From Antedon mediterranea (Eukaryota; Animalia; Echinodermata): a stretch of 64,000 nucleotides of DNA. Below the pieces are notes generated by a model. The model was given only the letters and a program-made list of their open reading frames with translations. It searched no databases and was not told the DNA's origin. Positions 10,181-55,158 of this stretch are shown piece by piece; position 1 is the stretch's first letter; every line of letters begins with the position of its first letter. The stretch is from contig NC_092672.1 of assembly GCF_964355755.1 (NCBI RefSeq), positions 21,217,237 through 21,281,236 of the forward strand. The letters are read 5' to 3'. The position numbers were made by a program, and so were the translations under genes.

Positions 10181-10357
10181 TGCAATGTCCGATATTATGT
10201 TTAATATTATGTGATTCATTAACGAAAATAAATACAATGGACACCTCGTTTTGCCGTGTGTACTGGAGTGCTTTATTCACCAACAAATACATGAATCCAC
10301 ATCGGATAGAGGGCGCTGTATCATTATTTTACATGATCATGAATACAATACATTACA
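10181..10357 (-). repeat. 3' LTR
   Basis: Direct repeat of 14675-14851; preceded on the minus strand by polypurine tract AAAAAGGGGCA (10358-10368). Confidence 0.95.
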
Positions 10358-10554
10358 TGCCCCTTTTTATTATATTTATTTTTTTAATTTTTTTTTTTAA
10401 ATTAGTTTGTACATACAGTAGTTTGTGATAAACTGACATTTTGAAAAGATGTTCAATAGTATGAGTTATTGCATTGTGGCATTTTCTTTTATTTACATTT
10501 TAACAATCGCTACTTAAGATACTACTTTCTACTTGCTTTCTCAATGCGCTTTAC

Positions 10555-12200: not shown

Positions 12201-12208
12201 GCATAATT

Positions 12209-13264
12209 TTATTCGGCCGAATTTAAACACCTGGAACCATATGCGACTGGTTGGTTCATTTGCATGATGACTGCCCCATAACCGTGGTTGCTCGCATCTG
12301 TAGCAAGTGTGATCGGTAGTGTCGGATCGTAATACCTTAGCACTGGAGCCGTGGTAGCAGCTATGATTAACTCATTGTACGCTCGCTCTTGGGCAGTACT
12401 CCAATCAAATTCGTTCCCCTTTTTAAGAAGTAGTCTGAGCGGCTCGCTCATTTTGGACATGTTAGGGAGAAACTTTGCCAAATATGTCATCATTCCTAAG
12501 AATGTTTGGAGCTGCGCTTTATCTACAGGCTTCGGCATGTCTCTCAAGGCTCTAATTCGTTCTGAATTTGGTTTTAAACCTTCGCTGGTGATTAGATGCC
12601 CCACATATTTTACTTCGCTTCGGTTGATTTCTGACTTATCTCGATTTAATTTTAGGCCTGTATGTCTCACACGGTCTAAGAACTCTTTGAGCCGTTCGAA
12701 ATGTTGCTAGGTATCTTTTGCAGTAATTAAGAAATCATCGACTATTATATTAACAGGTACTCCTTCAAAACCTTCTATCATTGCCCGTTGCCATTCTTCC
12801 GCAATGGAGTTTATTCCGAATGGGGCTCTGTTAAATTTATACCGGCCCCAAGGAGTGTTGAAACACGTTAGTAGTGACGCCTTTTTTGTTAGTTTGAGCT
12901 GCCAATAGCCTGATGTGGCATCAAGTTTTGAGAAGATTTTAGCGTTTGGCATTGTAGCGGCAACCTCTTCCACGGTTTTCATTGGGTAATGTTGTCTTAA
13001 TATGGCTTTATTCAATTCTCTAGGATCTAAACATATTCGAACTTTACCGTTCTTCTTTGCAACAGATGTGATTTGGCTGACCCACTCTGTGGGCTCAGTA
13101 ACACGCTCTATTACCCCGAGTTTGGTCATTCTTTCTAACTCCTCTTTAACTTTATCTTTGATTCTGTGCGGTATTTGACGTGGTGGGAGTTGCTTGGGCT
13201 GTATAGACTTGTCTACCTTAATGTCGAATTCACAGTTCTTAAGACAGCCCAACCCTTCAAACAA
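12209..13264 (-). pseudogene. pol: pol: reverse transcriptase and RNase H N-terminus with premature stops
   Basis: KVRICLDPRELN, KLDATSGYWQ, TPWGRY..RAPFGI, IVDD (YxDD position), TDAS..GYGAVI; in-frame stops at ~12707 and ~12209. Confidence 0.93.
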
Positions 13265-13278
13265 ATCTTTGTTTGCCT

Positions 13279-14637
13279 CTAGTAGTGACTCGATTTGGCA
13301 TTATAATTTACTTGTTCTTTCTCAATGGATTCCACCCGCTTAATTATGCCTAGTTGTTCACATGAGTCTAAACTAAGTATAGGCAAACAAGGCCCCTTTA
13401 TAATTTGGAATGTTAGCATCTGCTCAACATTTGCTTTTGATACTTTAGTTTTCAAAAGCATTTGAATTTGGCCCATTGGTTTGACTATTTTGCCACCAAA
13501 TCCCTTTAACCTATCCTGTTTCTTTATCAATTTTTGCTGAAATTCAGCATCAATTAAAGACATTACATCAGATGAGATTACATTGGCTTCAGAGCCAGTA
13601 TCTATTTTAAAGGATACTGGAAACCCATGTTGTACCAGGCATTCCTGGAACCAACCTTTTGCGGCCCTCTCTCGTTCTAATTCCGATATTGTTATTTCTG
13701 TCATTTCAAACAGGTCGCAATTGTCGCCGTCTTCGTCGCTTTCCACTCTGAGTTCCTTCATCTGTTTCTCAACGCCCTTTGTTCTGCACGCCCGGCTGAA
13801 ATGTCCCTTGCGGTTGCATGAGTTGCATTGCGCATCAATTGCGGGACACCTGACACCATCCTTGTGGTTGTTATAACCACACCGCCCACATTTGTTATGG
13901 TTCCCTGTAGTGGTAAACCTCTGCGATGGATGTTTGTTGTGATTGTATATTGGTTCAGCAGCTTGAAAATTCTTACCGTGTGAGTTTGTATTTCGGAACG
14001 ATTGTCCATGCTTTTGTGGTCTCTCATAATGCCTCTTGAATCTCATTTCGTGGACCGTTTGCTCTTGGCTTTTCATGGACTGGGCTTCTTGAATGTCGTT
14101 CATTTGACGGGTTGTACACTCATGTGCTCGGATCATGGTCAGGGCTTGGTCTACCGTCATGTTATTGTCCTTTGCGATGAGTTTCCTTCTGGTGGTTTCA
14201 TTGTGAACCCCGGCTATGATACAGTCTAGCAGCTGTTCCTCCTTGTTTGTATAATCGCAGTCTGCCAGTATGATTTTGGCTTTTGTGATGAAACTGTCAA
14301 TAACTTCTCCTTCCTTCTGTTTTAACGCTCGGAGTTGAAATCGTGCTACCCGGAAGTTTGATTTTGGGGTGACATATGCTTCAAATTTCTCCCAATGCTT
14401 ATCCAGAGTTTCGTCCCCATCTGCCAGGTTCCAAGAATCTTTAATGTCACGTCCCGTTTCGCCTACCCAAAGTAGGAGGTAGCGTAGTTTGGTTTTGTCT
14501 GGCTTGTCAGCCAGTGGACCCTCGAAGATCAGCGTCACTGTGCGCTTGAACTTTCTTAGTGCCTCCGGCAAATTCTGTGCCTTCCAATCTATCGTAGGTA
14601 TTGGAATTCCTGTTAATTCCGCTATATTTGTGGTCAC
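13279..14637 (-). pseudogene. gag: gag-protease ORF (452 aa, no ATG start)
   Basis: Two CCHC knuckles (CGRCGYNNHKDGVRC, CNSCNRKGHFSRAC) and aspartic protease FKIDTGSEAN; probable start ATG mutated to ATA before AELTGIP; not in frame with RT. Confidence 0.9.
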
Positions 14638-14660
14638 CAGTACTTACTTCACAGTTCCTG

Positions 14661-14674
14661 CACTTCTGACACCA
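14661..14674 (-). promoter_or_regulatory. Primer-binding site complementary to tRNA-Leu 3' end
   Basis: Minus strand TGGTGTCAGAAGTG immediately after the 5' LTR. Confidence 0.85.
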
Positions 14675-14851
14675 TGCAATGTCCGATATTATGTTTAATA
14701 TTATGTGATTCATTAACGAAAATAAATACAATGGACACCTCGTTTTGCCGTGTGTACTGGAGTGCTTTATTCACCAACAAATACATGAATCCACATCGGA
14801 TAGAGGGCGCTGTATCATTATTCTACATGATCATGAATACAATACATTACA
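14675..14851 (-). repeat. 5' LTR
   Basis: Direct repeat of 10181-10357 with a single T/C difference. Confidence 0.95.
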
Positions 14852-24612: not shown

Positions 24613-26060
24613 AGCCTGGTTTCCTGTCGACATAAGAACATCACTTTTGTTGCGACTACGTCGATTTGTCGTAAGAAATGCGGATTTTACAGGAAACCGA
24701 TTACGATCGAAAATTTATAAAATCGACGCAACGTAAGAAAAATGGTAACGACAAACGATTTTACAGGAAACCGATGACCTAACAATTGTTGCGTTACGCT
24801 TGAATGAACGCCCTTGCGTCACGTTTCTTACGTCTCTTACGAAAGTTGACTTGAAGTCAACTTTCGCAAGAGACGTAAGCGCAATTGTAACAAGCAACCA
24901 ATGACCGACAAGAGTTATGACGTAATGTGTATGACCTTATAGTGAAATAAAGCCGGACAATAACATTTGTATGTATTTACTACTGTATTTTAGCCCACTT
25001 TACGATGTTGTACATACTTTACAAATGCACAGTAGTTTCAATATAATAATGTTCTAATCAGGGAGTTTACAACTCATATCAAAATGTAATACTCCTATTT
25101 ATGGACGTGCAATAAACAATCAGCATTTCAAAGAAACCGACATTCTTCTGTTCTATTTGTCGGTAGAAACGTCGCGAAAAGTGAATATTTTCAACAAGAT
25201 AAGATATAGAAAGCCCCTTTGTAAGCAATATAATATTATTATGTAACTTTAAAAAAAAATGTTTGCTTGATTTTGTATAATTTATATTGTTTTGTTAAAT
25301 TTATTATTATTATAGGCCTGTAAATAATGGGTATCTTACTGCGGTAGTAGGCCTACTATCTCATGCTCGATTAGAGTATGCCTGGGCCCACAGGCCAAGG
25401 CCTAGCCTAGGGCCTAGGTAGGTCTAATAATAATAGGAATCCCGAAATGATTTGCTTTTTTTAAATTTTGAAAACAGTTTAAGGCTAGGCCTAGAGGGCC
25501 AGGATAATTCATTTATATTTTGATTCATACAATAGTACAAAGGCCTACTAGCATAGGCTCCTAGGCTAGTTTGATTAGATTTTGGTCAAATCAATTCCTA
25601 TTAGTACAGTATTAAATTAGTATTATTACTAATACTAAGGGCCTAGCCTATCTACTAAAAATAATATGTTGGTGTGCTGCACTGACACTGCTGTTGAGTA
25701 GCTACAGGTACAATAACATCATTCAACATTTCTCGCGAAAAATGATAAAATCCGCTCTAAAAAGAAACACTCAATCAGAGATGTTTTTCAAATACGTCAT
25801 AAATCTGACCGACGTAAGAAAAAAATTTCAACTTTCGTAACAACACTAAAATCGACGTAAGCATACGACGTGTGTTTCACAGCCAACATTTCAACTTTCG
25901 GGAGCAGCATAACTACAGATGTTTCTCTGCGGCCCGATACGATCTTGACTAACGTCAACGACGTCCATTTTTTCTCAACTTTCGTAAGAGACGTAAGAAA
26001 CGTATGAAACGCAAGAATCGTTGCAAAATTCGACTTCTTACGTCGACAGGAAACCAGCCT
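24613..26060. mobile_element. PIF/Harbinger-like non-autonomous DNA transposon
   Basis: TIR AGCCTGGTTTCCTGTCGAC(A)TAAGAA / TTCTTACGTCGACAGGAAACCAGCCT, TSD TAA (24610-24612, 26061-26063), subterminal ACGTAAG repeats. Confidence 0.8.
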
Positions 26061-26111
26061 TAAGAAACACAAGAAACCAGCTGAACTAGACTTAAATGTT
26101 CATACAAACAT

Positions 26112-27270
26112 AGTAGTATAGTTCCCCGTTCAGTCCAATGAATAATTCATAAATTAATTAATGAATATTAATATATTAATTATGAGTGTACTATTTATGA
26201 ATAATTAATTAGGGGGTAGTTTTATGAATATTTAATAATTAAAATGGTATTATTTTTTAATAAATGAATAAATTAATTTGTTTAGCGATCTCAGTCCAAT
26301 GAAGAAGTAATAAGATATTTTAATATTCATGAATATTAATATATTTTTATTAATATGAGGGGTGTTTTAATGAATAATTAGTAAATGAGTGATAGTTTTA
26401 CGTATAATTTTTAAACGTAATACATGTATTACATGATGTTTAAATAAATATTTACATTTAAATATTAAAGACAATGTGCTTACCTTCATTGAGAAGTCTA
26501 ATGTACAGTTTAATGAATAAAATCCACAAGTTTAATCAGCTTTGATTACTGTTTTTTATGTTTGTATAAGGAATCATAACATCAATTCGCTGTCTTTCCA
26601 TGGAATTAGTTTACATGTGAGGCGTGGACAGGTCATTTTTTGTAATTCTGTGATTTTAGCGGGTATGTGACGTCATCCGGCAATGAACCAATAAGATTCC
26701 TTATAAGCATAATGCTAATGAAATTAGAATTCGTTGTCCTTGTTGAGATATTCAAAGATATTAAAAGTTATTTAATTATTTTATTAGTTTTTTATCCTTT
26801 TGTTTTTTCGTTTAGTTAAATAACCGCATTATTTTTTAAGGGTATTCCTTCAATATATAAAGATGGTAATAAATAAATAAATAAATAAAAATTAAAAATA
26901 ATGTGCTTACCTTCATTGAGAAGTCTGATATTATAGTATATTTTAATGAATAAAATCTACAAGTTTAATCAGCTTTGATTGCTGCTTTTTTTATATGTTT
27001 GTAAAAGAACAAAATCATAACATCAATCCGCTGTCTATTTTTTCAAATCCTGTGATTTTAGAGGGTATGTGACGTCATCAGGCAATGAACCAATAAGATT
27101 CCTTATAAACATAGCGCTAATGAATTAATCTACCAATCATAATTCGTTGTTTTTGTAAGCGTAGCGATCTCAGTCCAATGAATAAGTAATGAGATGTTTT
27201 AATATTCGATCGTGAATATTAATATATTTTTATTAATATGAGAGTGTTTTAACGAATACTTAGTAATTGC
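26112..27270 (+). promoter_or_regulatory. Terminal origin/enhancer-like repeat region (mirror at 37599-38757)
   Basis: TCAGTCCAATGAA x3 (~26130, 26291, 27170); duplicated block ~26473-26725 / 26900-27125, each with TGACGTCA, CCAAT and TTATAA; many ATGAATAT/AATT motifs. Confidence 0.6.
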
Positions 27271-27455
27271 GTTGGTATTTATTCTATGAATTATTGAATT
27301 AAGTATGATATATGTAAATTGTTTTATTTTTAACACGGTACCTGATTTACTATATATATATACAGATTGTTAATTTGAAAACAGTACAGTTTTTCTGCTT
27401 TAGATTTTTAACATTTAGTCATCTGTTCTTTATCCTGCTGTTATTATCTATCAGG

Positions 27456-28148
27456 ATGAATTCTACTCAAAATCAATCCGGTAGTAAGAGAGTTTTTTCT
27501 TCTTCAAAAGGACAGAGTCCTGTATCTAATCGAGTAAAGATACACAAAGTTTCACATCAACACGGCACAGCAGTACCTTCAAATTGTATGACGTTTTTAA
27601 TGGCGATTCAACCTCCACCTCCAATGAACGTTGATTTCAATAATGTATCTAATACTGAAGAAGACGAACATTATAGATCGAGAATAATTTCTGAAGAGGA
27701 GAGGATTGTATACGACGACACGTCATCGGTAGTTGACTACCACCTATTTCTGGCAAGAAAATCCGATGTAGAAGATGAGGTAGAAGATGAGGTGTTTGCA
27801 GAAGAGTACCTGAACCCTGTGCTGGAGGCGGAGATTAAGAAAGAAACTACCGAACTTGAGTACAAAGAAATAATGAGAACAATTGAGAAGGTTTTCATAG
27901 AAGAATTTATATTCATTCTGAAGGACATGGTTGAACGTTATAACTTTCACGGCTCAAGATATGAACAACTCTTAACATTTTTTCGACCAATTCTGGCATT
28001 GAAACTTGTGGACAATAGCGCTACCCATTTTGAATGGGCGCTAAACTACTTTCATTTACGTTGTATCAATGTTGATGCGTTCGATAAAGCCATAAAGTTG
28101 ATTACAAATGATTCAGAGCTTTTTAATAAGATTCTTTACCAATTGTAA
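27456..28148 (+). CDS. Orphan 230-aa protein: S-rich N-terminus, PPPP, acidic middle, helical C-terminus (left arm)
   Basis: Uninterrupted ORF in very AT-rich DNA with natural composition; first ATG at 27456 (track start 27375 is TTG); AATAAA downstream at ~28280. Confidence 0.7.
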   Translation: MNSTQNQSGSKRVFSSSKGQSPVSNRVKIHKVSHQHGTAVPSNCMTFLMAIQPPPPMNVDFNNVSNTEEDEHYRSRIISEEERIVYDDTSSVVDYHLFLARKSDVEDEVEDEVFAEEYLNPVLEAEIKKETTELEYKEIMRTIEKVFIEEFIFILKDMVERYNFHGSRYEQLLTFFRPILALKLVDNSATHFEWALNYFHLRCINVDAFDKAIKLITNDSELFNKILYQL

Positions 28149-28403
28149 TTTGTACAAATTTAAAATAATATCTTAACACTTTTTTAATTAATGTTACATA
28201 ATTTTATAATTCTTATTTCTTTTCGGTAAATTTATTATTATTATGGTTATAAATTATATTGAAATAGAATGTGTGTTAAAATAAAGGTTGTGTTTTTTTC
28301 TTTTAAAAGCAACAACAACAAAAATGAAATTTGATCTTTGCGTGTTATTTAAGTATTTGATTTATTTTTTTAATTTTCATTTGGGTGAATGAGGGTAATG
28401 AAT

Positions 28404-28626
28404 ATGGATGAGTACTTAAGAAAAGTATATTAAGATCCTAAGCATCCTGATAGTTTTGGTGGTGTGGACCGACTTTATCAAAATGTAAAAGACGATTTAA
28501 ATATTACCAAGAGACAAGTTCAAGACTGACTGAACAAGCAATACATTACACACATCCATTCAACGTAAATTCAAACAAAACTGGGTACTTGTAAGTGCTA
28601 TTGATGAACAATGGGGAATGGATTTG
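28404..28626 (+). pseudogene. Polinton-type integrase N-terminal remnant
   Basis: MDEYLRKVY*DPKHPDSFGGVDRLYQ...VQD*L then, after a frameshift, TLHTSIQRKFKQNWVLVSAIDEQWGMDL; matches recalled Polinton INT motifs YYDP.HP.SFGG and TLH.P.R..F.R..V.V..ID.QW.ADL. Confidence 0.85.
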
Positions 28627-28627
28627 G

Positions 28628-28810
28628 AAAAATAACGTGTATAAAATTTGATTCAGACAAACTGTTTGCAAAATCAAAGGTTTGACTCTAGATTTCCAAA
28701 AATCAAAGGAAGTCAATTTTGAAATAGTTGGTAGCATGGTACGAGGAATCGGACTGGAAAAAATAACAACAACTAATCCTAACAAAATAACCCGTAAACC
28801 AAAATCTCAC
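28628..28810 (+). pseudogene. Protein-primed DNA polymerase B C-terminal remnant
   Basis: KNNVYKI*FRQTVCKIKGLTLDFQKSKEVNFEIVGSMV..ITTTNPNKITRK resembles Polinton pPolB KNYAY..TVCKVKGFTL..NF..I...NP.KI.R. Confidence 0.8.
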
Positions 28811-29902
28811 TTAATATTTATTTTGTATTATAAATTTGTAAAAGTAGTTACCCTATTTTAATTCATGGTAAATTTATTTTTCGAATTAATTTAATTTGTT
28901 TTATTTTCTGTTGAATTTTTATTATTATTATGTTTGTAAAGTGTATTGCAATAGATTTGTTTAATAAAATAAATTAATTATGTTTTGACTTAATTTATGT
29001 CAGTGTAAATTTGTAAAAGTAGTTTTCCTATTTTAATTCATGATAAGTTTATTTCTTGACTTTACTTAATTTTTTTCTTTTCTGTTGAAGTAGAATGTGT
29101 ATTGAAATACATTTTGTTTTTAACATCAACAACAAAAAATGAAATTTTATCTTTGCGTGTTGTTTAATTCGTGTATGATGTTTTTCTAATTTATTTAAAA
29201 AAAAAAAAAAAAAAGAAAACAAGTTTTTGAATTTGTTAAATGTAATTGCAAACATACAAAATAAATGATTGCGATTAAAAATTATATTTTGTAAAGTGAA
29301 TTACAATAGAATGTGTATTGAAATACATTTTGTTTTTAACGTCAACAACAAAAATGAAATTTGATCTTTGCGTGTTGTTTAACTCGTGTATGAAGTTTTT
29401 GAATTTGTTAAATGTAATTGCAAACATACATATTAAATGATTGTGATTAAAAATATTCTGTTTACTTTTTATTTTTTATTTTAAACAGTAGTATTTTTAA
29501 CAGTAGTTATATTTTATATATAATAAGTAATATTACAAAAATAAACATACAAAATGTATAAAGTATAGACTTATTAAATTTAAATACAATTTCTTTTTTT
29601 CAAAATGAATTTCATTTTATACGTGTTTTCAATTTTAAATCTTTTAAGAAAGACACAATACGTACTGATATAAAAACGCACACAAAAGGAAACAAATTTG
29701 AGACGCACGGTTTGTAACGACACTTTCAATAAGAAGGCATATTATAAATGTATTTTTACAAAATTTATAAAGTAAATGTTTATTATTGAGAAATATACAT
29801 TTTAGATAAATGATAACACATCTAAAAGTAATTAGAGAGATCAATACAATATGGTGTTCATAATAATTTGTTTTGATGACTAGACGAAACATCTGAAGAC
29901 AT

Positions 29903-30467
29903 TCAACGAAAAACAAGCGTTAACACCATACCAGTCACTAAAAATGCCACTGCTTTGAAAAAAACATCTCCCTTCCTACACAGAGACAAATTCTGAACGA
30001 AAATAATAAATAAAAATAATTAGTAAACAAAACACGCGCATTATAAATAAAATGAATAATTTAAGAATATTTGTTAAACTACCCACGAACAAAAAACGAA
30101 ACATACTAACCGACTCATCGTCATTACGAAGTTCAAATAACGAAAACTTTTCCTTGAAAAATCCACAGGAGACACGTTTTACATTTTCTAACTGCAATTC
30201 AGTGTCACATTGTGTCGCAACACATGTACATACAACGAGTCCTGTCACAAGTCTGCCGACGTTTATTTTTCTATCGCTCATCATTTGTTCTAATACATAA
30301 TACAGCGCTTCCAAAGAAATATCTTTACACAATTCTAACACATTAAAATTGTTTTCCAACTCTTTACAAGCACGAATAGTACTCTGGAGGATGGGTGAAT
30401 CCAAAACAACTAACCCCGTCAATTTATATTCAATGTATGCTAAAACTACTTCCTCTAAATCAACCAT
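29903..30467 (-). CDS. Bcl-2-family protein, left-arm copy (exons 30467-30111 and 29992-29903; 148 aa)
   Basis: Exact mirror of the gene at 34402-34966. Confidence 0.82.
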
Positions 30468-31149
30468 AACGCTCGACAAAACAAATGATAATGGATGTAA
30501 TTACCAAGAAAGTTACAACTTAAAACCTTTATTTTTGTTTTTAAAAGAAGTTGTAACATAGAAACTAATTTTGTCAGGAAATGTGTTTTTATTATTTATG
30601 TGATTTATTTGTGTTTAGAAAGTTACAACATTAATATTTAATTTGGTAAAAAAATGTGAATATACGGAGCCGATTGTAATTTTTAATCCTTAGTATAGTG
30701 AGAGATTTTATAAACAAAAAAAGAGCGAACGGAAATTAATGATTGCAGATTAGACATATAGAAATGGATTGAAATTGGAAATCTACATGATCAAAGAAAA
30801 GAAACCCATTGTTCCGACAGAAGCTAATGACATTTACAAAGGATGACACACTTTGAATAGAATAAATACCGTATAACATAATTAAATTTTGTCAAGATAG
30901 TTGTCAAAAATAAATAAAATATATTATACTGAATTTACTTTGTACATTTATTTAATTTAGGCCGTAATTAGGTTTATTGTTCATTTATGATTGTGAAAAA
31001 AAAAAAATACATACTAATAAAACAGCATAGGCCTATAAAAAAAGTAAAAAAAAAAATAATGATTCAGTGTTATAATTTTATTTACCTGTCATTATGTTAA
31101 TAAAACATATTTAAATTTAATTTATGTCATGTTAGATATATTTTCAAGG

Positions 31150-31340
31150 ACATTTGTTACATACAAATAATTTTGTAAAGAAATTTGTTACATAAGATAA
31201 ATTTGTTAAGAAGTTTGTTTCATAAAAATATTTGTGAAGATAAATTTGTTACATAAAAATAATTTTGTAAAGAAATTTGTTACAAAAATTTATTTTTTAC
31301 AAGAAGTTTGTAACAGAAAATTATTTTGCAAAGAATTAGT
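31150..31340. repeat. Degenerate ~20-bp minisatellite (AATTTGTTACATAAA..), mirror at ~33530-33720
   Basis: Repeated ATTTGTTAC/TTTTGTAAAG units; similar units again at ~31690-31810. Confidence 0.6.
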
Positions 31341-31888
31341 TGCATCAATTGATTTTATCAAACGTATGTAATATAAAAAAATTATGTTGTTGTTGAATAA
31401 AATATTTTGTAATTCAGTCCATTTGCTCAGTAGTTTGTTTAAGTTGTTAAGTCTTGTTTGTGTAATATTCTTGTAAATAAAAGAATTTACTTTTAACCTT
31501 TGTAATTATTTTGTAAATATCATTTATGCATTTTTTTTTTTTTCGTAAATAATTGAATTTATTTATACTTTTTTTTTTGTATGGGAATCAATATTTGTTT
31601 ATAAATTTAATTGTGATTATAGATTTCTTCTTTATTTAGTATGTCGATTAATTTCAGATTCAGAAACATGTTACACAAGAAACAAACATTTTCATGAAAT
31701 TCGTTACATAACAAATAATTTATCAAGAATCTTTTTTTACATAAATTTAAATTTATCATTAATTTTGTTGTAAAATTTATTTTGTCATTAAATTTTGTTA
31801 CATAAAAAATAGTTGTTTCATGATTCTTGTTCTTTTTGTTCAGTACTTATATGAAAATTCAAGTTAAGAACGCAATGACAATGACTGG

Positions 31889-32070
31889 ATGTTTAGCGTG
31901 ATTAGAGGACCGCTTTCCTTCGGTAAATCGGTATTTGTTAACAATCTTTTAGAGAATAATTACTTTGACAAGTCGTTTGATGATATGACATAGTGTTATG
32001 GCGAATATCAAACTTAGTTTACGGAACTAATTACTGCAACATCTGACACAAGTTATAAGAAGGGTATACT
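31889..32070 (+). pseudogene. Polinton packaging (A32/FtsK-like) ATPase N-terminal remnant
   Basis: MFSVIRGPLSFGKSVFVNNLLENN..MT*CYGEYQT*FTEL..KKGI: Walker A GPxxxGKS and the (W)CYGE.Q motif; a second degenerate FTAII...GKSVF at ~32135-32195. Confidence 0.78.
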
Positions 32071-32214
32071 TATACATTGGATGTTTTCGATGTTAGTAAA
32101 TAACACAATGGTGAATAACTAGATGTTTACACCTTCACTGCTATAATTACAGTTAGAATGTCATAAAGGGTAAATCGGTATTCTTTAAAGAATTAGGCCT
32201 ATAAAACAATTAAA

Positions 32215-32654
32215 TTGTCGAGTTGCTTGACGTTAGAGAAGTAAATGTTGTTTGTGTTTACATGTGTGTCATAGTAGAGAATGAATTATAAACCATTACA
32301 TTGTCGAGTTTCTTGACGTTAGAGAAGTAAATGCTGTTTGTGTTTACATGCGTGTCATAGTAGAGTTTTGTGTTTACATGCGTGTCATAGTAGAGTTTGT
32401 AATTACATTTTTTTCTCAATATAAATGTATTATATGTTGTCGATAGTTGTTGAGAAAAAAATGTAATTACAAACTCTACTATGACACGCATGTAAACACA
32501 AAACTCTACTATGACACGCATGTAAACACAAACAGCATTTACTTCTCTAACGTCAAGAAACTCGACAATGTAATGGTTTATAATTCATTCTCTACTATGA
32601 CACACATGTAAACACAAACAACATTTACTTCTCTAACGTCAAGCAACTCGACAA
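32215..32654. repeat. Palindrome centre: direct repeats (~85-bp period x2, 30-bp unit x3) on each side of a 30-bp non-palindromic spacer (32420-32449)
   Basis: TTGTCGAGTT.CTTGACGTTAGAGAAGTAAATG twice and TTTGTGTTTACATG.GTGTCATAGTAGAG three times; spacer TATAAATGTATTATATGTTGTCGATAGTTG. Confidence 0.9.
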
Positions 32655-32798
32655 TTTAATTGTTTTATAGGCCTAATTCTTTAAAGAATACCGATTTACC
32701 CTTTATGACATTCTAACTGTAATTATAGCAGTGAAGGTGTAAACATCTAGTTATTCACCATTGTGTTATTTACTAACATCGAAAACATCCAATGTATA

Positions 32799-32980
32799 AG
32801 TATACCCTTCTTATAACTTGTGTCAGATGTTGCAGTAATTAGTTCCGTAAACTAAGTTTGATATTCGCCATAACACTATGTCATATCATCAAACGACTTG
32901 TCAAAGTAATTATTCTCTAAAAGATTGTTAACAAATACCGATTTACCGAAGGAAAGCGGTCCTCTAATCACGCTAAACAT
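32799..32980 (-). pseudogene. Packaging ATPase remnant, right-arm mirror
   Basis: Reverse complement of 31889-32070. Confidence 0.78.
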
Positions 32981-34401
32981 CCAGTCATTGTCATTGCGTT
33001 CTTAACTTGAATTTTCATATAAGTACTGAACAAAAAGAACAAGAATCATGAAACAACTATTTTTTATGTAACAAAATTTAATGACAAAATAAATTTTACA
33101 ACAAAATTAATGATAAATTTAAATTTATGTAAAAAAAGATTCTTGATAAATTATTTGTTATGTAACGAATTTCATGAAAATGTTTGTTTCTTGTGTAACA
33201 TGTTTCTGAATCTGAAATTAATCGACATACTAAATAAAGAAGAAATCTATAATCACAATTAAATTTATAAACAAATATTGATTCCCATACAAAAAAAAAA
33301 GTATAAATAAATTCAATTATTTACGAAAAAAAAAAAAATGCATAAATGATATTTACAAAATAATTACAAAGGTTAAAAGTAAATTCTTTTATTTACAAGA
33401 ATATTACACAAACAAGACTTAACAACTTAAACAAACTACTGAGCAAATGGACTGAATTACAAAATATTTTATTCAACAACAACATAATTTTTTTATATTA
33501 CATACGTTTGATAAAATCAATTGATGCAACTAATTCTTTGCAAAATAATTTTCTGTTACAAACTTCTTGTAAAAAATAAATTTTTGTAACAAATTTCTTT
33601 ACAAAATTATTTTTATGTAACAAATTTATCTTCACAAATATTTTTATGAAACAAACTTCTTAACAAATTTATCTTATGTAACAAATTTCTTTACAAAATT
33701 ATTTGTATGTAACAAATGTCCTTGAAAATATATCTAACATGACATAAATTAAATTTAAATATGTTTTATTAACATAATGACAGGTAAATAAAATTATAAC
33801 ACTGAATCATTATTTTTTTTTTTACTTTTTTTATAGGCCTATGCTGTTTTATTAGTATGTATTTTTTTTTTTTCACAATCATAAATGAACAATAAACCTA
33901 ATTACGGCCTAAATTAAATAAATGTACAAAGTAAATTCAGTATAATATATTTTATTTATTTTTGACAACTATCTTGACAAAATTTAATTATGTTATACGG
34001 TATTTATTCTATTCAAAGTGTGTCATCCTTTGTAAATGTCATTAGCTTCTGTCGGAACAATGGGTTTCTTTTCTTTGATCATGTAGATTTCCAATTTCAA
34101 TCCATTTCTATATGTCTAATCTGCAATCATTAATTTCCGTTCGCTCTTTTTTTGTTTATAAAATCTCTCACTATACTAAGGATTAAAAATTACAATCGGC
34201 TCCGTATATTCACATTTTTTTACCAAATTAAATATTAATGTTGTAACTTTCTAAACACAAATAAATCACATAAATAATAAAAACACATTTCCTGACAAAA
34301 TTAGTTTCTATGTTACAACTTCTTTTAAAAACAAAAATAAAGGTTTTAAGTTGTAACTTTCTTGGTAATTACATCCATTATCATTTGTTTTGTCGAGCGT
34401 T

Positions 34402-34966
34402 ATGGTTGATTTAGAGGAAGTAGTTTTAGCATACATTGAATATAAATTGACGGGGTTAGTTGTTTTGGATTCACCCATCCTCCAGAGTACTATTCGTGCT
34501 TGTAAAGAGTTGGAAAACAATTTTAATGTGTTAGAATTGTGTAAAGATATTTCTTTGGAAGCGCTGTATTATGTATTAGAACAAATGATGAGCGATAGAA
34601 AAATAAACGTCGGCAGACTTGTGACAGGACTCGTTGTATGTACATGTGTTGCGACACAATGTGACACTGAATTGCAGTTAGAAAATGTAAAACGTGTCTC
34701 CTGTGGATTTTTCAAGGAAAAGTTTTCGTTATTTGAACTTCGTAATGACGATGAGTCGGTTAGTATGTTTCGTTTTTTGTTCGTGGGTAGTTTAACAAAT
34801 ATTCTTAAATTATTCATTTTATTTATAATGCGCGTGTTTTGTTTACTAATTATTTTTATTTATTATTTTCGTTCAGAATTTGTCTCTGTGTAGGAAGGGA
34901 GATGTTTTTTTCAAAGCAGTGGCATTTTTAGTGACTGGTATGGTGTTAACGCTTGTTTTTCGTTGA
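34402..34966 (+). CDS. Bcl-2-family protein, right-arm copy (exons 34402-34758 and 34877-34966; 148 aa)
   Basis: BH4-like EEVVLAYIEYKLTG, BH3-like IRACKELENNF, BH1-like VLEQMMSDRKINVGRLVT; phase-0 intron GTTAGT...TACTAAT...TTTTCGTTCAG; exon 2 gives tail anchor FFKAVAFLVTGMVLTLVFR*. Confidence 0.82.
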
Positions 34967-36058
34967 ATGTCTTCAGATGTTTCGTCTAGTCATCAAAACA
35001 AATTATTATGAACACCATATTGTATTGATCTCTCTAATTACTTTTAGATGTGTTATCATTTATCTAAAATGTATATTTCTCAATAATAAACATTTACTTT
35101 ATAAATTTTGTAAAAATACATTTATAATATGCCTTCTTATTGAAAGTGTCGTTACAAACCGTGCGTCTCAAATTTGTTTCCTTTTGTGTGCGTTTTTATA
35201 TCAGTACGTATTGTGTCTTTCTTAAAAGATTTAAAATTGAAAACACGTATAAAATGAAATTCATTTTGAAAAAAAGAAATTGTATTTAAATTTAATAAGT
35301 CTATACTTTATACATTTTGTATGTTTATTTTTGTAATATTACTTATTATATATAAAATATAACTACTGTTAAAAATACTACTGTTTAAAATAAAAAATAA
35401 AAAGTAAACAGAATATTTTTAATCACAATCATTTAATATGTATGTTTGCAATTACATTTAACAAATTCAAAAACTTCATACACGAGTTAAACAACACGCA
35501 AAGATCAAATTTCATTTTTGTTGTTGACGTTAAAAACAAAATGTATTTCAATACACATTCTATTGTAATTCACTTTACAAAATATAATTTTTAATCGCAA
35601 TCATTTATTTTGTATGTTTGCAATTACATTTAACAAATTCAAAAACTTGTTTTCTTTTTTTTTTTTTTTTTTAAATAAATTAGAAAAACATCATACACGA
35701 ATTAAACAACACGCAAAGATAAAATTTCATTTTTTGTTGTTGATGTTAAAAACAAAATGTATTTCAATACACATTCTACTTCAACAGAAAAGAAAAAAAT
35801 TAAGTAAAGTCAAGAAATAAACTTATCATGAATTAAAATAGGAAAACTACTTTTACAAATTTACACTGACATAAATTAAGTCAAAACATAATTAATTTAT
35901 TTTATTAAACAAATCTATTGCAATACACTTTACAAACATAATAATAATAAAAATTCAACAGAAAATAAAACAAATTAAATTAATTCGAAAAATAAATTTA
36001 CCATGAATTAAAATAGGGTAACTACTTTTACAAATTTATAATACAAAATAAATATTAA

Positions 36059-36241
36059 GTGAGATTTTGGTTTACGGGTTATTTTGTTAGGATTAGTTGT
36101 TGTTATTTTTTCCAGTCCGATTCCTCGTACCATGCTACCAACTATTTCAAAATTGACTTCCTTTGATTTTTGGAAATCTAGAGTCAAACCTTTGATTTTG
36201 CAAACAGTTTGTCTGAATCAAATTTTATACACGTTATTTTT
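36059..36241 (-). pseudogene. pPolB C-terminal remnant, right-arm mirror
   Basis: Reverse complement of 28628-28810. Confidence 0.8.
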
Positions 36242-36242
36242 C

Positions 36243-36465
36243 CAAATCCATTCCCCATTGTTCATCAATAGCACTTACAAGTACCCAGTTTTGTTTGAAT
36301 TTACGTTGAATGGATGTGTGTAATGTATTGCTTGTTCAGTCAGTCTTGAACTTGTCTCTTGGTAATATTTAAATCGTCTTTTACATTTTGATAAAGTCGG
36401 TCCACACCACCAAAACTATCAGGATGCTTAGGATCTTAATATACTTTTCTTAAGTACTCATCCAT
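36243..36465 (-). pseudogene. Integrase N-terminal remnant, right-arm mirror
   Basis: Reverse complement of 28404-28626 with the same lesions. Confidence 0.85.
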
Positions 36466-36720
36466 ATTCATTACCCTCATTCACCCAAATGAAAATTAAA
36501 AAAATAAATCAAATACTTAAATAACACGCAAAGATCAAATTTCATTTTTGTTGTTGTTGCTTTTAAAAGAAAAAAACACAACCTTTATTTTAACACACAT
36601 TCTATTTCAATATAATTTATAACCATAATAATAATAAATTTACCGAAAAGAAATAAGAATTATAAAATTATGTAACATTAATTAAAAAAGTGTTAAGATA
36701 TTATTTTAAATTTGTACAAA

Positions 36721-37413
36721 TTACAATTGGTAAAGAATCTTATTAAAAAGCTCTGAATCATTTGTAATCAACTTTATGGCTTTATCGAACGCATCAACAT
36801 TGATACAACGTAAATGAAAGTAGTTTAGCGCCCATTCAAAATGGGTAGCGCTATTGTCCACAAGTTTCAATGCCAGAATTGGTCGAAAAAATGTTAAGAG
36901 TTGTTCATATCTTGAGCCGTGAAAGTTATAACGTTCAACCATGTCCTTCAGAATGAATATAAATTCTTCTATGAAAACCTTCTCAATTGTTCTCATTATT
37001 TCTTTGTACTCAAGTTCGGTAGTTTCTTTCTTAATCTCCGCCTCCAGCACAGGGTTCAGGTACTCTTCTGCAAACACCTCATCTTCTACCTCATCTTCTA
37101 CATCGGATTTTCTTGCCAGAAATAGGTGGTAGTCAACTACCGATGACGTGTCGTCGTATACAATCCTCTCCTCTTCAGAAATTATTCTCGATCTATAATG
37201 TTCGTCTTCTTCAGTATTAGATACATTATTGAAATCAACGTTCATTGGAGGTGGAGGTTGAATCGCCATTAAACACGTCATACAATTTGAAGGTACTGCT
37301 GTGCCGTGTTGATGTGAAACTTTGTGTATCTTTACTCGATTAGATACAGGACTCTGTCCTTTTGAAGAAGAAAAAACTCTCTTACTACCGGATTGATTTT
37401 GAGTAGAATTCAT
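36721..37413 (-). CDS. Orphan 230-aa protein, right-arm copy
   Basis: Mirror of 27456-28148, differing by one F/C substitution. Confidence 0.7.
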   Translation of the reverse strand: MNSTQNQSGSKRVFSSSKGQSPVSNRVKIHKVSHQHGTAVPSNCMTCLMAIQPPPPMNVDFNNVSNTEEDEHYRSRIISEEERIVYDDTSSVVDYHLFLARKSDVEDEVEDEVFAEEYLNPVLEAEIKKETTELEYKEIMRTIEKVFIEEFIFILKDMVERYNFHGSRYEQLLTFFRPILALKLVDNSATHFEWALNYFHLRCINVDAFDKAIKLITNDSELFNKILYQL

Positions 37414-40400
37414 CCTGATAGATAATAACAGCAGGATAAAGAACAGATGACTAAATGTTAAAAATCTAAAGCAGAAAAACTGTACTGTTTTCAAATTAAC
37501 AATCTGTATATATATATAGTAAATCAGGTACCGTGTTAAAAATAAAACAATTTACATATATCATACTTAATTCAATAATTCATAGAATAAATACCAACGC
37601 AATTACTAAGTATTCGTTAAAACACTCTCATATTAATAAAAATATATTAATATTCACGATCGAATATTAAAACATCTCATTACTTATTCATTGGACTGAG
37701 ATCGCTACGCTTACAAAAACAACGAATTATGATTGGTAGATTAATTCATTAGCGCTATGTTTATAAGGAATCTTATTGGTTCATTGCCTGATGACGTCAC
37801 ATACCCTCTAAAATCACAGGATTTGAAAAAATAGACAGCGGATTGATGTTATGATTTTGTTCTTATACAAACATATAAAAAAAGCAGTAATCAAAGCTGA
37901 TTAAACTTGTAGATTTTATTCATTAAAATATACTATAATATCAGACTTCTCAATGAAGGTAAGCACATTATTTTTAATTTTTATTTATTTATTTATTTAT
38001 TACCATCTTTATATATTGAAGGAATACCCTTAAAAAATAATGCGGTTATTTAACTAAACGAAAAAACAAAAGGATAAAAAACTAATAAAATAATTAAATA
38101 ACTTTTAATATCTTTGAATATCTCAACAAGGACAACGAATTCTAATTTCATTAGCATTATGCTTATAAGGAATCTTATTGGTTCATTGCCGGATGACGTC
38201 ACATACCCGCTAAAATCACAGAATTACAAAAAATGACCTGTCCACGCCTCACATGTAAACTAATTCCATGGAAAGACAGCGAATTGATGTTATGATTCCT
38301 TATACAAACATAAAAAACAGTAATCAAAGCTGATTAAACTTGTGGATTTTATTCATTAAACTGTACATTAGACTTCTCAATGAAGGTAAGCACATTGTCT
38401 TTAATATTTAAATGTAAATATTTATTTAAACATCATGTAATACATGTATTACGTTTAAAAATTATACGTAAAACTATCACTCATTTACTAATTATTCATT
38501 AAAACACCCCTCATATTAATAAAAATATATTAATATTCATGAATATTAAAATATCTTATTACTTCTTCATTGGACTGAGATCGCTAAACAAATTAATTTA
38601 TTCATTTATTAAAAAATAATACCATTTTAATTATTAAATATTCATAAAACTACCCCCTAATTAATTATTCATAAATAGTACACTCATAATTAATATATTA
38701 ATATTCATTAATTAATTTATGAATTATTCATTGGACTGAACGGGGAACTATACTACTAAACATGTAACAAGTTCAGAGTGTATCCAACATTTAACATTAT
38801 GAAATATTTTAGACCACCGACAATGATGATCACCATTGCTTTGCAAAGTCTGCAGTTTCTGTAATTATTCATTCATATTTATCTCCATCATCCAACATTA
38901 TCAAACAAAACTGTTTTGAGGATAAGCATAGTTATTGTAAGGTTCAACTTTAATAATTTTTAAAAGTTTTACACACAACACAAATAAGTAAAGCTTTCCC
39001 AGTTTATTCATAGTATACATTTAACAATACATAATATTTATTTCTACTGATACTGTACAAGCAATGCTAAATACTACTAAAGCTTAATAATATACTACAT
39101 TTGGCCTCTTGGGGGCTACCACTCATATGACATCGCTGTATTAAAGGTCCAGTGTGTTGTCACAGGAGCGAGTAAATCAAATTGTTGTTATTAAGTATAT
39201 CGGAAGGATGTAAGTGACATCCGTTAGGTAAATTGTGGAATTTGGGGGAAAAATAATTCCCCAGAATTATACCAGCCAAATGAGCGAATAGCATGAGTAA
39301 CATATGAGTTAGCGCCTGTGTTGAAGTTAGGTGTTGGATGATGCCGGGGGATGGCTGGGTGGGAAGATTGAAAAGTTTGTACAACTATTAAACGGCTAAT
39401 TTAACAATGAAGTGTGCTATTATGTATCTTAGTAAACAACTAAAATACTCTGAATTCCCATTGGTTGCCAATTAGAAATTAGCCTATCCTACATTTTGTG
39501 GTTCCACTATTAGATATACCCGTTGGTCTGTAGAAATACATTGTCAATTACTGTGGTTGGAACTTTAATTACCTGTAGAAACAATATACCATTCATCCTA
39601 ACACTTCTGTAACTCTGAAATCTACCCACATTATATACCACATCCTTAGTTAAAAGAAAGTACTTGTGCTCTGTATAAACTATAATTTATTACTTTAAAT
39701 TTCCTTTAACATTTTCTAACATTAATGTTAAAAGATTACTTTTAAAAGAACTTATATAGACAAATTTCAAATTTCAGTATAAGCTATTTAACTATTTAAA
39801 AAATAAATATGCCAAGTTATATTTTAATCAATGGATGTAAATGACTTTGCATTATATAAATGTATTACAATTGTTTATAAACTCTTCATTTTTGTAGCAC
39901 AAATAATATTGACCTTGGTTTATCCTTGTTTCAGTTGGATGGTCCTACCTTCATTACATTCATTTTCACAGAGTAAATTAAAATTTATCTCCTTTAAAAT
40001 TAAATTCAATAAACTTTATCCCATAACAATTTTCCTATGAATAAATAGATGGAATTATTCTTAGTTTATTGATTTAATGCAAACCAATTTCATACACATT
40101 TACACATCCAGAAATATTCTGTTCATTTTACTACTATTATACAATTCATTTATTAGCTTTGTTATGGGTTTAACAAGCTAAATTCTGTCTGTCATATAAT
40201 ATAATAGTCAAAGGCAAAAAATGTCTTAATAGGCAAACAATTTCTATTAATCATACATCCTAATAATCTATCCATAATTGTTTCATAATCACATAATAAT
40301 TTTGATTTTTATTGTGCTACAATAAAGTTCAAATTACACAGTACAATCTCTATTCTTTTGTACATAAATGATAGAGACGCACTTTAAACAAAAATTGAAA

Positions 40401-51628: not shown

Positions 51629-51897
51629 CTTAACCTCCTACTGTGACATGTGTTTATATAAGTCCAACTTTGATAGGCAGGTCGTTAAACCTTTTGATCA
51701 TTGCCGACTTCTGCTAGTTTTTGCCTGACCATTGACCTTGCAACATACTGAAGAATGTACCTTGTCCTAATAAATCAATTACAAGAGAGCTAATAATATC
51801 ACAGGGATATAGGATTCAAGTCATTAATCACCTGCTTAGTTGATATATCTGATAAGGATTTTGACCAAAAAGTTCTAATGGGGATGTACACCTAATG

Positions 51898-52480
51898 TTT
51901 CACACCAAAACTCCGGAGTGTCTCCGGAGACACCCCGGGGTTTATGACCATTCAAAACGTCGAGAAACTCCGGAGATACCCCTTTCACACCAACCTAGCA
52001 ACTCCGGGGTTTATAAAATAAATTTGTAAATGTCGCCCTCTATTTTGTTTGTTTACATAGCGACGATCATTAGAATCATTTTAATTAATAATTATGTTTA
52101 ATTTAATAATTAATTTCAAAAGTCTCAGAAGTAATATAATATTTTATTGATACTACTTATTATTTTCTAGACCCGCTATATATTTTTTACAAATATTTAA
52201 AGTATTTTGAAATAAAACTAAAGCAATGAGTGATCGTGTGAGGATGACCTTTTGACCCGAAACACTCCGGAGTTTGATGTTGGTACCTTTCACACCAAAA
52301 CTCCGGGGTGTCCCCGGAGTTCGCTCTCCGGAGAATGTTCAGCTGTTCAATCCCGCAGTTTTAAACTCCGGAGTTGCTTGATTTTACCTTTCACACCAAA
52401 CAGCGGGACGTCAACTCCGGGGTGTCTCCGGGGTGTCTCCGGAGTGTCTCCGGAGTTTTGCTTTTGGTGTGAAAGGGGTA
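51898..52480. mobile_element. MITE with TTTCACACCAAA / ACTCCGGAG subterminal repeats (copy 2 at ~54296-54867)
   Basis: Multiple TTTCACACCAA and CTCCGGAG motifs; right end TTTTGGTGTGAAAGGGGTA. Confidence 0.55.
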
Positions 52481-52682
52481 TCAGTCTAATTTGGCATTTT
52501 TAGTCATGTGCAAATGAGACTCTATAGCTCACTATGTCGGTCGGTAGGTCGGTCGGTAAACACTAACTCAAATTTGCGCATGTGACTGCAGCCATGTATA
52601 TGGCCTTGTTAATCATCTATTTAAATAATAATAAATACAACATAGTATAAAACTGACTCCAAATAACGAGAGGCAAGCCATG

Positions 52683-52721
52683 ATTCAACGTTTCGATCTT
52701 TATTGTATCATCATCAGGAAT
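52683..52721 (-). ncRNA. Minimal type I hammerhead ribozyme motif (Penelope-like)
   Basis: Minus strand AUUC-CUGAUGA-U-GAU(loop)AUC-GAAAC-GUU-GAAU with palindromic stem III AACGUU. Confidence 0.55.
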
Positions 52722-52989
52722 GATTACAGAATGTAAGCATTATTGTTATTATTATGGAATGTTTTATTAAATAGGTAACAGCAGTGAGCATCAGTGCTTT
52801 GCACGGGTAGTAACAAAGTGCGAGGCAGCGAGGCACGCGAGGCAGGGAAGGCATGCGAGGCAAGTCAGAAATTTATGCGAGGCATCGTTTTACCATCATC
52901 GAAAAATGCGAGGCATCATTTTATCATTTCTCAAAATTGCAAGGCAGGAAATCACCGAAATTGAAGTAGCCTAGGCCTAGGCCCGCTAG

Positions 52990-53830
52990 GCTAGTTTCCT
53001 TTTGCACCTGCCTTGTATTTTAACCAACTTTATCCTGAATACCACAGCTTAGAATTAGTAGGCCTACTTTAATGAAGAAAAATCACATAAAAGTAACAAT
53101 AAATCCATTAAATTGCTAATTTTACAGACGTTGTTTTTCTCGCATTTCGCACACTCAATGTTCAATATTTTGGTTTCTATGGAACGCCAAAAGAGCAAAA
53201 TTAATTAGATGGCTAAAAACTCTGTGGAATCCATTTATATTTAACGCATTATTTGGTGAAAATCAAGTACAATTTCAATAGATTTTGTCACTGTCAGTAA
53301 GGAAAAATGTTACTGTTCACCGGTGTACTGTTGATAATGTACACGGTTTCGGTAACCTTTTAAAGAATAAAATAGAAAAATTCATCATAATATCCTTAGT
53401 AGGATGTCCTAGGTCTAGACTAGGTAGTGATGTTGATTTAGGATCGATTATTATTCTTTGAAAACAGAACAGTATCAGCAGTAACATATTACAGCATTTT
53501 TATTGACAAATTAACAAATATATTGAAATAAAACGTGTTTTTCACCAATAAATGCATGAGAAATTGACGCATTCCACTGAGTTTTAGTCCTCTATTATCG
53601 TTGGTCTTTTGGCGCTCCATAGAAACAAAAATATTGAACATTGAATAAGTGAAATTCGCGAACAGTGTGCGAGAAACACGCCTGTAAAATCATTAATTTA
53701 AGGATTTATTTGTTACTTTTTATGTGATTCTTTCATTAAAGTACTCATGAGGTATACTTCTAAGGTGTGGTATTCACACGATAAAGTTGTTATCAAATTT
53801 GGAGTAAAAATACAAGCGAAGGAAACTAGC
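52990..53830. repeat. Diverged ~280-bp inverted repeat (fold-back MITE)
   Basis: ~52990-53265 mirrors ~53535-53830, e.g. CAATGTTCAATATTTTGGTTTCTATGGAACGCCAAAA vs TTTTGGCGCTCCATAGAAACAAAAATATTGAACATTG. Confidence 0.7.
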
Positions 53831-55036
53831 GCCAGGTTTATTAGTACGTACATGGACAACAATAAATAAAAATCGTTCGTAATATACCTAGCTTACTAAA
53901 ACAGGAATAGTGTATCATTATTAAATATTACACCAATTATTATTATATCAAAATTGATTAAATTATTTTCTACATAGGCCTCTTATCTAGGTTAGGGCTA
54001 AGCATATTAGCTAAAGTTTAATTTTAGGCCTAGTATTACAATTGTCGGACGTAAGTCTTTTTTCACACGCGCTAACAGGTCGTTAAACCTTTTGATCATT
54101 GCCGACTTCTGCTAGTTTTTGCCTGACCATTGACCTTGCAACATACTGAAGAATGTACCTTGTCCTAATCAATCAATTACAAGAGAGCTAATAATATCAC
54201 AGGGATATAGGATTCAAGTCATTAATCACCTGCTTAGTTGATATATCTGATAAGGATTTTGACCAAAAAGTTCTAATGGGGATGTACACCTAATGTTTCA
54301 CACCAAAACTCCGGAGTGTCTCCGGAGACACCCCGAGGTTTATGACCATTCAAAACGTCGAGAAACTCCGGAGATACCCCTTTCACACCAACCTAGCAAC
54401 TCCGGGGTTTATAAAATAAAATTGTAAATGTCACCCTCTATTTTGTTTGTTTACATAGCGACGATCATTAGAATCATTTTAATTAATAATATGTTTAATT
54501 TAATAATTAATTTCAAAAGTCTCAGAAGTAATATAATATTTTATTGATACTACTTATTATTTTCTAGACCCGCTATATATTTTTTACAAATATTTAAAGT
54601 ATTTTGAAATAAAACTAAAGCAATGAGTGATCGTGTGATGATGACCTTTTGACCCGAAACACTCCGGAGTTTAATGTTGGTACCTTTCACACCAAAACTC
54701 CGGGGTGTCCCCGGAGTTCGCTCTCCGGAGAATGTTCAGCTGTTCAATCCCGCAGTTTTAAACTCCGGAGTTGCTTGATTTTACCTTTCACACCAAACAG
54801 CGGGACGTCAACTCCGGGGTGTCTCCGGAGTGTCTCCGGAGTTTTGCTTTTGGTGTGAAAGGGGTATCAGTCTAATTTGGCATTTTTAGTCATGTGCAAA
54901 TGAGACTCTATAGCTCACTATGTCGGTCGGTAGGTCGGTCGGTAAACACTAACTCAAATTTGCGCATGTGCTATTTAAATAATAATAAATACAACATAGT
55001 ATAAAACTGACTCCAAATAACGAGAGGCAAGCCATG

Positions 55037-55075
55037 ATTCAACGTTTCGATCTTTATTTTATCATCATCAGGAAT
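55037..55075 (-). ncRNA. Second copy of the minimal hammerhead motif
   Basis: Duplicate of 52683-52721 with one loop substitution. Confidence 0.55.
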
Positions 55076-55158
55076 GATTACAAAATGTAAGCATTATTGT
55101 TATTATTATGGAATGTTTTATTAAATAGGTAACAGCAGTGAGCATCAGTGCTTTGCAC

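Follow-up and report, generated by a model that had tools for sequence, protein, structure and literature searches.

Mavericks carry the end motif (AGT)2//(ACT)2 or (AG)3//(CT)3 and are flanked by 6-bp duplications (PMC8097293, Barreat and Katzourakis 2021). In vertebrates, their terminal repeats are 46-1,447 bp long and the smallest intact element is 12,723 bp (PMC8097293). Terminal repeats of Polintons have been given as 100-1,500 bp (Jeong et al., 10.1101/2023.08.22.554363), and the longest published ones that we found are about 2 kb (10.1101/2025.02.07.637071). We describe an element at 26112-38757 of a 64,000-nucleotide (nt) stretch of the echinoderm Antedon mediterranea (assembly GCF_964355755.1, contig NC_092672.1, positions 21,217,237 to 21,281,236 of the forward strand; the window, whose numbering we use). 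The element resembles Polintons/Mavericks in its end motif, its 6-bp duplication, its remnants of integrase, pPolB and packaging ATPase genes, and a length close to 12,723 bp. In contrast, those elements have repeats of about 0.05-2 kb around unique genes, whereas this one has 6,308-nt arms, a 30-nt interior and no intact core gene. Because the end motif and duplication agree with those of Mavericks and the repeat length and core genes do not, we regard the element as a derivative rather than an autonomous member.

Based on our results, we conclude that the element is a real, gene-depleted Polinton/Maverick derivative in which one parental end has been duplicated as a mirror image. We suspect, with a probability of roughly 0.6, that it belongs to a non-autonomous copy-back lineage whose palindromes are replicated and integrated as such by the polymerase and integrase of a helper Polinton acting in trans.

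The palindrome and its insertion site

Over all of its 12,646 nt, the element can be aligned gap-free to its own reverse complement. Its arms differ at three of 6,308 positions (26981, 27004 and 27595) and by no insertion or deletion (indel), and all five A or T runs of at least nine letters, including an 18-nt A run, are equal in length between them; 99.8% of the element is repeat. The termini match the (AGT)2//(ACT)2 motif of Mavericks, and among the lengths tried for the target-site duplication (3 to 9 bp) 6 bp alone fits. An earlier note on this stretch, made from the letters alone, had described two 6,308-bp arms without indel offset around a 30-bp spacer, AGTAGT and ACTACT termini and the 6-bp duplication AAACAT, all of which is borne out. 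The outermost, non-coding part of each arm (Table 1) is likely the original terminal repeat and origin of the parent. A likeness of the spacer to 30872-30905 was not significant, as 20 of 200 shuffles reached the same level.

A second arm could in principle be made by a fold-back read or a mis-resolved repeat during assembly. The lack of any indel, even within the 18-nt A run, would fit such an artefact, and polishing can raise the apparent likeness of arms and may have made these look more alike than they are. However, a fold-back read would mirror the flank too, whereas these flanks show no mirror symmetry (ungapped identity of 29% over 1 kb); therefore, we take the insertion to be genuine. 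The flanks also resume in register with the 6-bp duplication, the arms differ at three positions, and the spacer joined to an arm is present in read-derived contigs. In addition, the host sequence at the insertion is itself a repeat, with a paralog at 57781-58048 that aligns to 26062-26109 and then, uninterrupted, to 38759-38973, an analogue of the empty site. One contig of the run X3 (see below) exits the window at 26101 directly into sequence like that of the right flank. An assembly or fold-back read artefact was one of the outcomes that the earlier note had named as able to overturn its account; with a host paralog contiguous across the site and unmirrored flanks counting against it, we consider an artefact very improbable. 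The ends, the duplication, the gene remnants and the contiguous paralog likewise support the proposal of a true insertion of Polinton origin that is non-autonomous and has dead core genes.

In the same host repeat, 51 nt to the left of the palindrome, lies a further inserted element, 1.45 kb long and non-coding (24613-26060). It has terminal inverted repeats and a TAA duplication, and we take it to be Harbinger-like.

Table 1. Features of the palindromic element and its target site (window positions; genes and remnants are given for the left arm; ORF, open reading frame; aa, amino acids)
Feature	Position	Strand	Description
Target-site duplication, left copy	26106..26111		AAACAT, 6 bp
Left arm	26112..32419	+	6,308 nt; begins AGTAGT
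Terminal non-coding region	26112..27300 (inner boundary approximate)	+	internal duplications; three CAGTCCAATGAA and two TGACGTCA motifs
ORF-A	27456..28148	+	230 aa, open in both arms, orphan; N-terminal half low-complexity and acidic, C-terminal half predicted helical
Integrase N-terminus remnant	28389..28629	+	broken; stops, one frame change, catalytic core missing
pPolB C-terminal end remnant (weak match)	28655..28798	+	about 48 codons, directly behind the integrase remnant
Bcl-2-like gene (predicted)	29903..30467	-	exon 1 30467-30111; predicted GT..AG intron 30110-29993 (118 nt); predicted exon 2 29992-29903
A32-like packaging ATPase remnant	31898..32023	+	N-terminal part, broken; tblastn and profile
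Short tandem duplications	32204..32398	+	76-nt and 30-nt units, immediately before the turn-around
Spacer	32420..32449		30 nt, sole unique sequence; loop of the predicted hairpin
Right arm	32450..38757	-	6,308 nt; left arm in reverse complement, each gene and remnant present a second time; ACTACT at its end
Target-site duplication, right copy	38758..38763		AAACAT, 6 bp

Core-gene remnants and cargo genes

The integrase remnant is the clearest of the parental genes. With stops read as X, 28404-28574 matched the protein P0001, which carries an integrase core domain (Pfam rve), at 73% identity (E 1e-16; one of one candidate); this match shows only that such an integrase exists somewhere. Searching metagenome contigs with P0001 gave 227 candidate stretches, from which 63 loci were taken, and the 549 ORFs of at least 100 residues from these loci served as tblastn queries against the arm and five control sequences (best control E 0.003). 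The integrase region gave 75 alignments (best E 2e-8), the ATPase region eight (best E 1e-4) and a pPolB C-terminal motif at 28667-28720 a single weak one (E 9e-5); the motif lies at the C-terminal end of L004:1-1947, a DNA_pol_B_2 protein. Twelve profiles run against the arm gave independent E-values (iE) of 1e-8 and 4e-6 for integrase, 4e-5 for ATPase and 0.007 for pPolB, the last a weak value since one control reached 0.018 with the profile 'PW'. Thus, of the three core genes whose remnants had been claimed, those of integrase and ATPase are confirmed and that of pPolB weakly so.

Several other matches were set aside or negative. The tblastn match at 26869-26958 was low-complexity, and the match of the 'PZ' profile on the integrase remnant is probably due to integrase sequence inside that profile. 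Pfam gave no relevant family for nine remnant pieces. Three profiles of ORFs like those of locus L005, whose capsid and protease labels we presume from gene order (Pfam named only pPolB, ATPase and integrase), scored no better on the arm than on controls. None of the integrase, pPolB, ATPase, protease and major and minor capsid genes is intact. Because the N-terminus of the integrase abuts the C-terminus of the polymerase, we infer one large internal deletion in the parent.

As a comparator we used L005:384-15912, a Polinton of conventional build from a metagenome contig; it encodes pPolB, ATPase and integrase, and its terminal repeats are 646 nt long and 97% identical. When the 22 of the 63 loci that are at least 7 kb long were compared with themselves, nine had inverted repeats, the longest of 649 nt; short-read contigs of this kind are unable to show whole palindromes, and the comparison is therefore not evidence for or against them. 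The terminus of our element had no match in viral_contigs.

The remnants also bear on whether the element might be a class II transposon of the Foldback type that relies on a cut-and-paste transposase and holds Polinton scraps by chance. Long inverted arms with internal repeats are what such a transposon would have. However, the termini and the duplication length are of the Maverick type, and every recognizable remnant is of a Polinton core gene, so that we give this explanation hardly any weight.

Each arm keeps two open cargo genes, ORF-A and the Bcl-2-like gene; these genes and the predicted intron had gone unremarked in the earlier note. ORF-A is about twice as long as the longest ATG-initiated ORF found over 200 shuffles (114 aa). 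The arm difference at 27595 (mirror position 37274) alters the residue at codon 47, so the two copies of the gene are not identical. ORF-A has no Pfam family, and we found no relative of it among 181 candidates, among 1.84 billion representatives or in 40 stretches of viral_contigs; its structure model had a predicted local distance difference test (pLDDT) score of 40.

The second cargo gene is predicted to be Bcl-2-like on converging weak evidence. Its unspliced ORF (30467-30003, 155 aa) scored 22.3 bits against Pfam PF00452, under the curated cut-off of 31.4 (E 2e-4). A sequence search of the PDB gave a sole and weak match, fowlpox FPV039 (E 0.33). The structure model is poor (pLDDT 43), and among the Foldseek matches listed for it 37 of 46 rows had Bcl-2-family titles, none at E <= 0.001. 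Neither the 43 candidates nor 38 stretches of viral_contigs yielded a relative. The predicted splice would lead in frame into a 29-residue exon with a hydrophobic tail; tail-anchored Bcl-2 proteins have a C-terminal hydrophobic membrane anchor. None of the runs listed as containing part of the arm (see below) is identified as RNA, and X5 is RNA only by guess; the pieces listed for X5 span the predicted intron unspliced, with no splice joint among the joints listed. None of this bears on expression.

Other copies of the arm and the origin of the palindrome

The earlier note had proposed a search for further copies. Part of the arm is present in 14 runs from six studies, and half or more of it in four runs, all from sample S1. 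Our comparison of contigs covered X1, X3 and X5 (organism A), X6 (organism B) and X10; X7-X9 and X11-X14, with small shares, were left unused. Over the left arm and its flank (25300-32449), contigs at 85% identity or more numbered 1476 in X3, 366 in X1, 156 in X5 and 1278 in X6, and sequence variants among them occur along the whole arm. From these contigs, the arm belongs to a multi-copy family of organism A, and organism B has relatives of it. The element thus combines Polinton ends and a duplication, lost core genes and several related copies, as is characteristic of a non-autonomous Polinton derivative.

The two arms of one copy are more alike than copies are among themselves. Against the window, the listed arm contigs had 17 differences in 2248 positions for X1 (seven of eight pieces) and 8 in 1279 for X3 (six of seven arm pieces), compared with 3 in 6308 between the window's arms (Fisher's test, p 6e-8 and 7e-5, respectively). 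The divergence of other copies from the window is thus about 13-16 times that between its arms. This count excludes X1 record 4 (2 differences and 16 gap letters) as well as two records of X3, namely 15 (12 differences and 10 gap letters) and 9, which is flank; re-adding the first two would leave the contrast no lower.

The centre of the palindrome (32060-32510) is represented by 29 X3 contigs. Those that cover both 32413 and 32432 have a summed depth of 1876 and include two variants absent from the window, the first lacking three letters at 32413 (depth 772), the second having an extra T behind 32432 (depth 950). Because X3 contigs with these indels cross the junction between arm and spacer, the junction exists in variants other than that of the window. 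In a palindromic family, the depths of terminus, inner arm and spacer should stand at 1:1:0.5, and in a conventional element at 2:1:1. In X3, the terminal part (2469-2922) and the inner arm (2585-3046) are equal in depth, and the spacer path is at about 1100, or about 0.4, a figure obtained by decomposing bin sums with the 772 and 950 contigs read as consecutive on one path. The ratio is near the palindromic one, but as depth does not measure copy number and it is uncertain what kind of run X3 is, this is a weak hint only. We think it likely that the palindrome is family-wide.

Some of the data weigh against a palindromic lineage. One X3 contig runs out of the spacer at 32450 into 12 letters that fail to match the window's right arm, which means that at least one spacer-bearing path is an imperfect mirror or no palindrome. 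A related junction that joins 32016/32020 to 32318/32322 and lacks 32017-32317 occurs in X1, X3, X5 and X6, near-identical in organisms A and B, and in X3 this subfamily exits the arm at 32363 into other sequence. Thus, part of the family has another inner structure, perhaps a second centre or a relative that lacks the palindrome. S1, from which X1 and X3 come, may be the source sample of the window, in which case these runs are not independent of it. Lastly, a single event of very recent date, or gene conversion in a chromosomal palindrome, would also lead to high arm identity. No bridge from the spacer to the right arm is among the 15 pieces listed for the centre, where gaps in cover are no proof of absence; X5 and X10 gave no contigs there and X6 has no cover at 32380-32459, gaps that likewise prove nothing. 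The proposed search for copies bore fruit in a multi-copy family with junction variants in X3, with one X3 path departing from the mirror at 32450.

Several of these points would suit a one-off product of copy-back: a defective family without palindromes would have given rise to one aberrant replication intermediate, which integrated once and did not spread. The sequence behind 32450 differs from the mirror arm, the related subfamily leaves the arm at 32363, small indels separate the window's spacer and arm end from the X3 variants of greatest depth, and just three arm mismatches would point to a very recent event. On the other hand, the equal depth of terminal and inner arm with the spacer at about 0.4 argues, weakly, against it, and the loose end of the other variant is mirror-like, agreeing with the mirror arm in 9 of 13 letters in register, as would be expected of a fold-back at an imperfect stem. 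We consider a one-off product unlikely.

The palindrome might also have arisen in the chromosome. A conventional element, already deleted internally, would have inserted, and a break inside it would then have led to fold-back, copying of the left half and rejoining via the terminal repeat on the right, with the duplication kept and the arms maintained by gene conversion. The logic of fold-back inversion is established, the tandem duplications before the turn-around are possible slippage sites, and the 6-bp duplication cannot separate this route from copy-back replication. The argument of the earlier note that a clean duplication implies that the palindrome was the integrase substrate thus went too far, since a conventional element made palindromic in place would keep its duplication. 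However, the spacer variants in several X3 contigs would require repeated events in place at one point, and long chromosomal palindromes with a 30-nt spacer tend toward deletion rather than repeated creation. An origin in the chromosome therefore seems to us quite unlikely.

We favor a copy-back lineage served by a helper Polinton, for which parts of a mechanism have been described. The model published for Polintons has a single-stranded 'racket' as its intermediate; this racket/hairpin model, given second-hand in PMC4196379, is based on bioinformatics. In phi29, the polymerase, which uses protein priming, has been noted to switch strands (PMC5910420). We postulate that a parent lost most of its integrase and pPolB through internal deletion. 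During protein-primed strand-displacement synthesis, a new strand could then have turned back on itself within the ATPase gene or immediately behind it and been extended outward along its own sequence, giving two identical, origin-bearing ends. The displaced strand of such a molecule would anneal to a hairpin of 6.3 kb with an ordinary duplex origin at its open end, and a helper polymerase would regenerate the palindrome. Insertion of the duplex by a helper integrase would create the 6-bp duplication. That hairpin copying regenerates the palindrome was already proposed in the earlier note and holds; copying alone would not erase mismatches between the arms, and repair of the hairpin or renewed fold-back would be needed to keep them alike.

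The terms satellite and defective-interfering, used in the earlier note, went too far as well, for they would require a helper, replication outside the chromosome, packaging or a lowered helper yield. More tentatively than the lineage proposed above, such elements could be natural copy-back satellites of animal Polintons: helper-sized palindromes that replicate through giant hairpins, insert in the germ line, perhaps use the helper capsid, and are maintained by doubled host-modulating cargo, for example an anti-apoptotic Bcl-2-like gene. The present copy would then represent an early stage, in which the deleted core genes are still readable.

Other repeats lie elsewhere in the window. A young Gypsy-type long terminal repeat (LTR) retrotransposon occupies 10181-14851 on the minus strand, with LTRs about 99% identical, the 4-bp duplication CTGC and a pol gene with in-frame stops. 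A direct duplication (51678-53294 and 54076-55632; 2.4-kb offset, 96-98% identity) has an inverted segment between its copies, and 61944-62459 is a fragment of a long interspersed nuclear element (LINE)-type reverse transcriptase.

Comparison with known systems

Foldback transposons (FB, Galileo and Tetris) are like this element in having long, modular inverted repeats and a small unique centre. They use cut-and-paste transposases and have different termini and duplication lengths. Among Polintons, those of butterflies have gene-containing terminal repeats of about 2 kb, and activity has been reported after loss of polB (Pannagram, 10.1101/2025.02.07.637071). Their repeats, like the arms here, are long enough to duplicate genes; however, they retain a unique interior and core genes. 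Nematode Mavericks have intron-containing cargo between the left terminal repeat and the integrase (Widen et al., 10.1101/2022.07.12.499685), which is the position of ORF-A here, and cargo introns, here a predicted one, are a further likeness. Unlike our element, nematode Mavericks have a conventional architecture with core genes, and their cargo consists of proteases and kinases rather than a Bcl-2-like protein. The palindromes reported for endogenous virophages are terminal ones of 52 nt (10.64898/2026.07.28.741278). Among listed titles and the beginnings of abstracts, our literature search gave no report of wholly palindromic Polintons or of Bcl-2 cargo in Polintons, and the texts of PMC6431247, 10.1101/2023.08.22.554363 and 10.1101/2025.02.07.637071 do not mention palindromes; Repbase entries and supplements could describe such elements.

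A family that is all terminal repeat would make the racket/hairpin model testable from sequence, since the model predicts co-evolution of the arms within each copy and a detectable snap-back species of 6.3 kb. The present copy records the route in its fused integrase and polymerase remnants and its turn-around at the ATPase gene, and it shows that cargo genes can stay open in such elements. Elements of this kind would be missed by repeat pipelines based on core genes and by short-read assemblies.

In the way it would work, the element is closest to symmetric replicons that use protein priming. The adenovirus 12 recombinant SYREC has a palindromic structure, phi29 has palindromic mini-replicons and yeast pGKL1 has hairpin plasmids, and adenovirus vectors have reportedly been made through recombination between inverted repeats. 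In all of these one end is mirrored and replication proteins come from a helper; SYREC, for example, needs one (PMC2396429). They differ from our element in being laboratory or episomal products without an integrase, and none is known to be a family inserted in the germ line with target-site duplications. If our interpretation is correct, the element would be a natural, inherited counterpart to the symmetric helper-dependent genomes of adenovirus and phi29.

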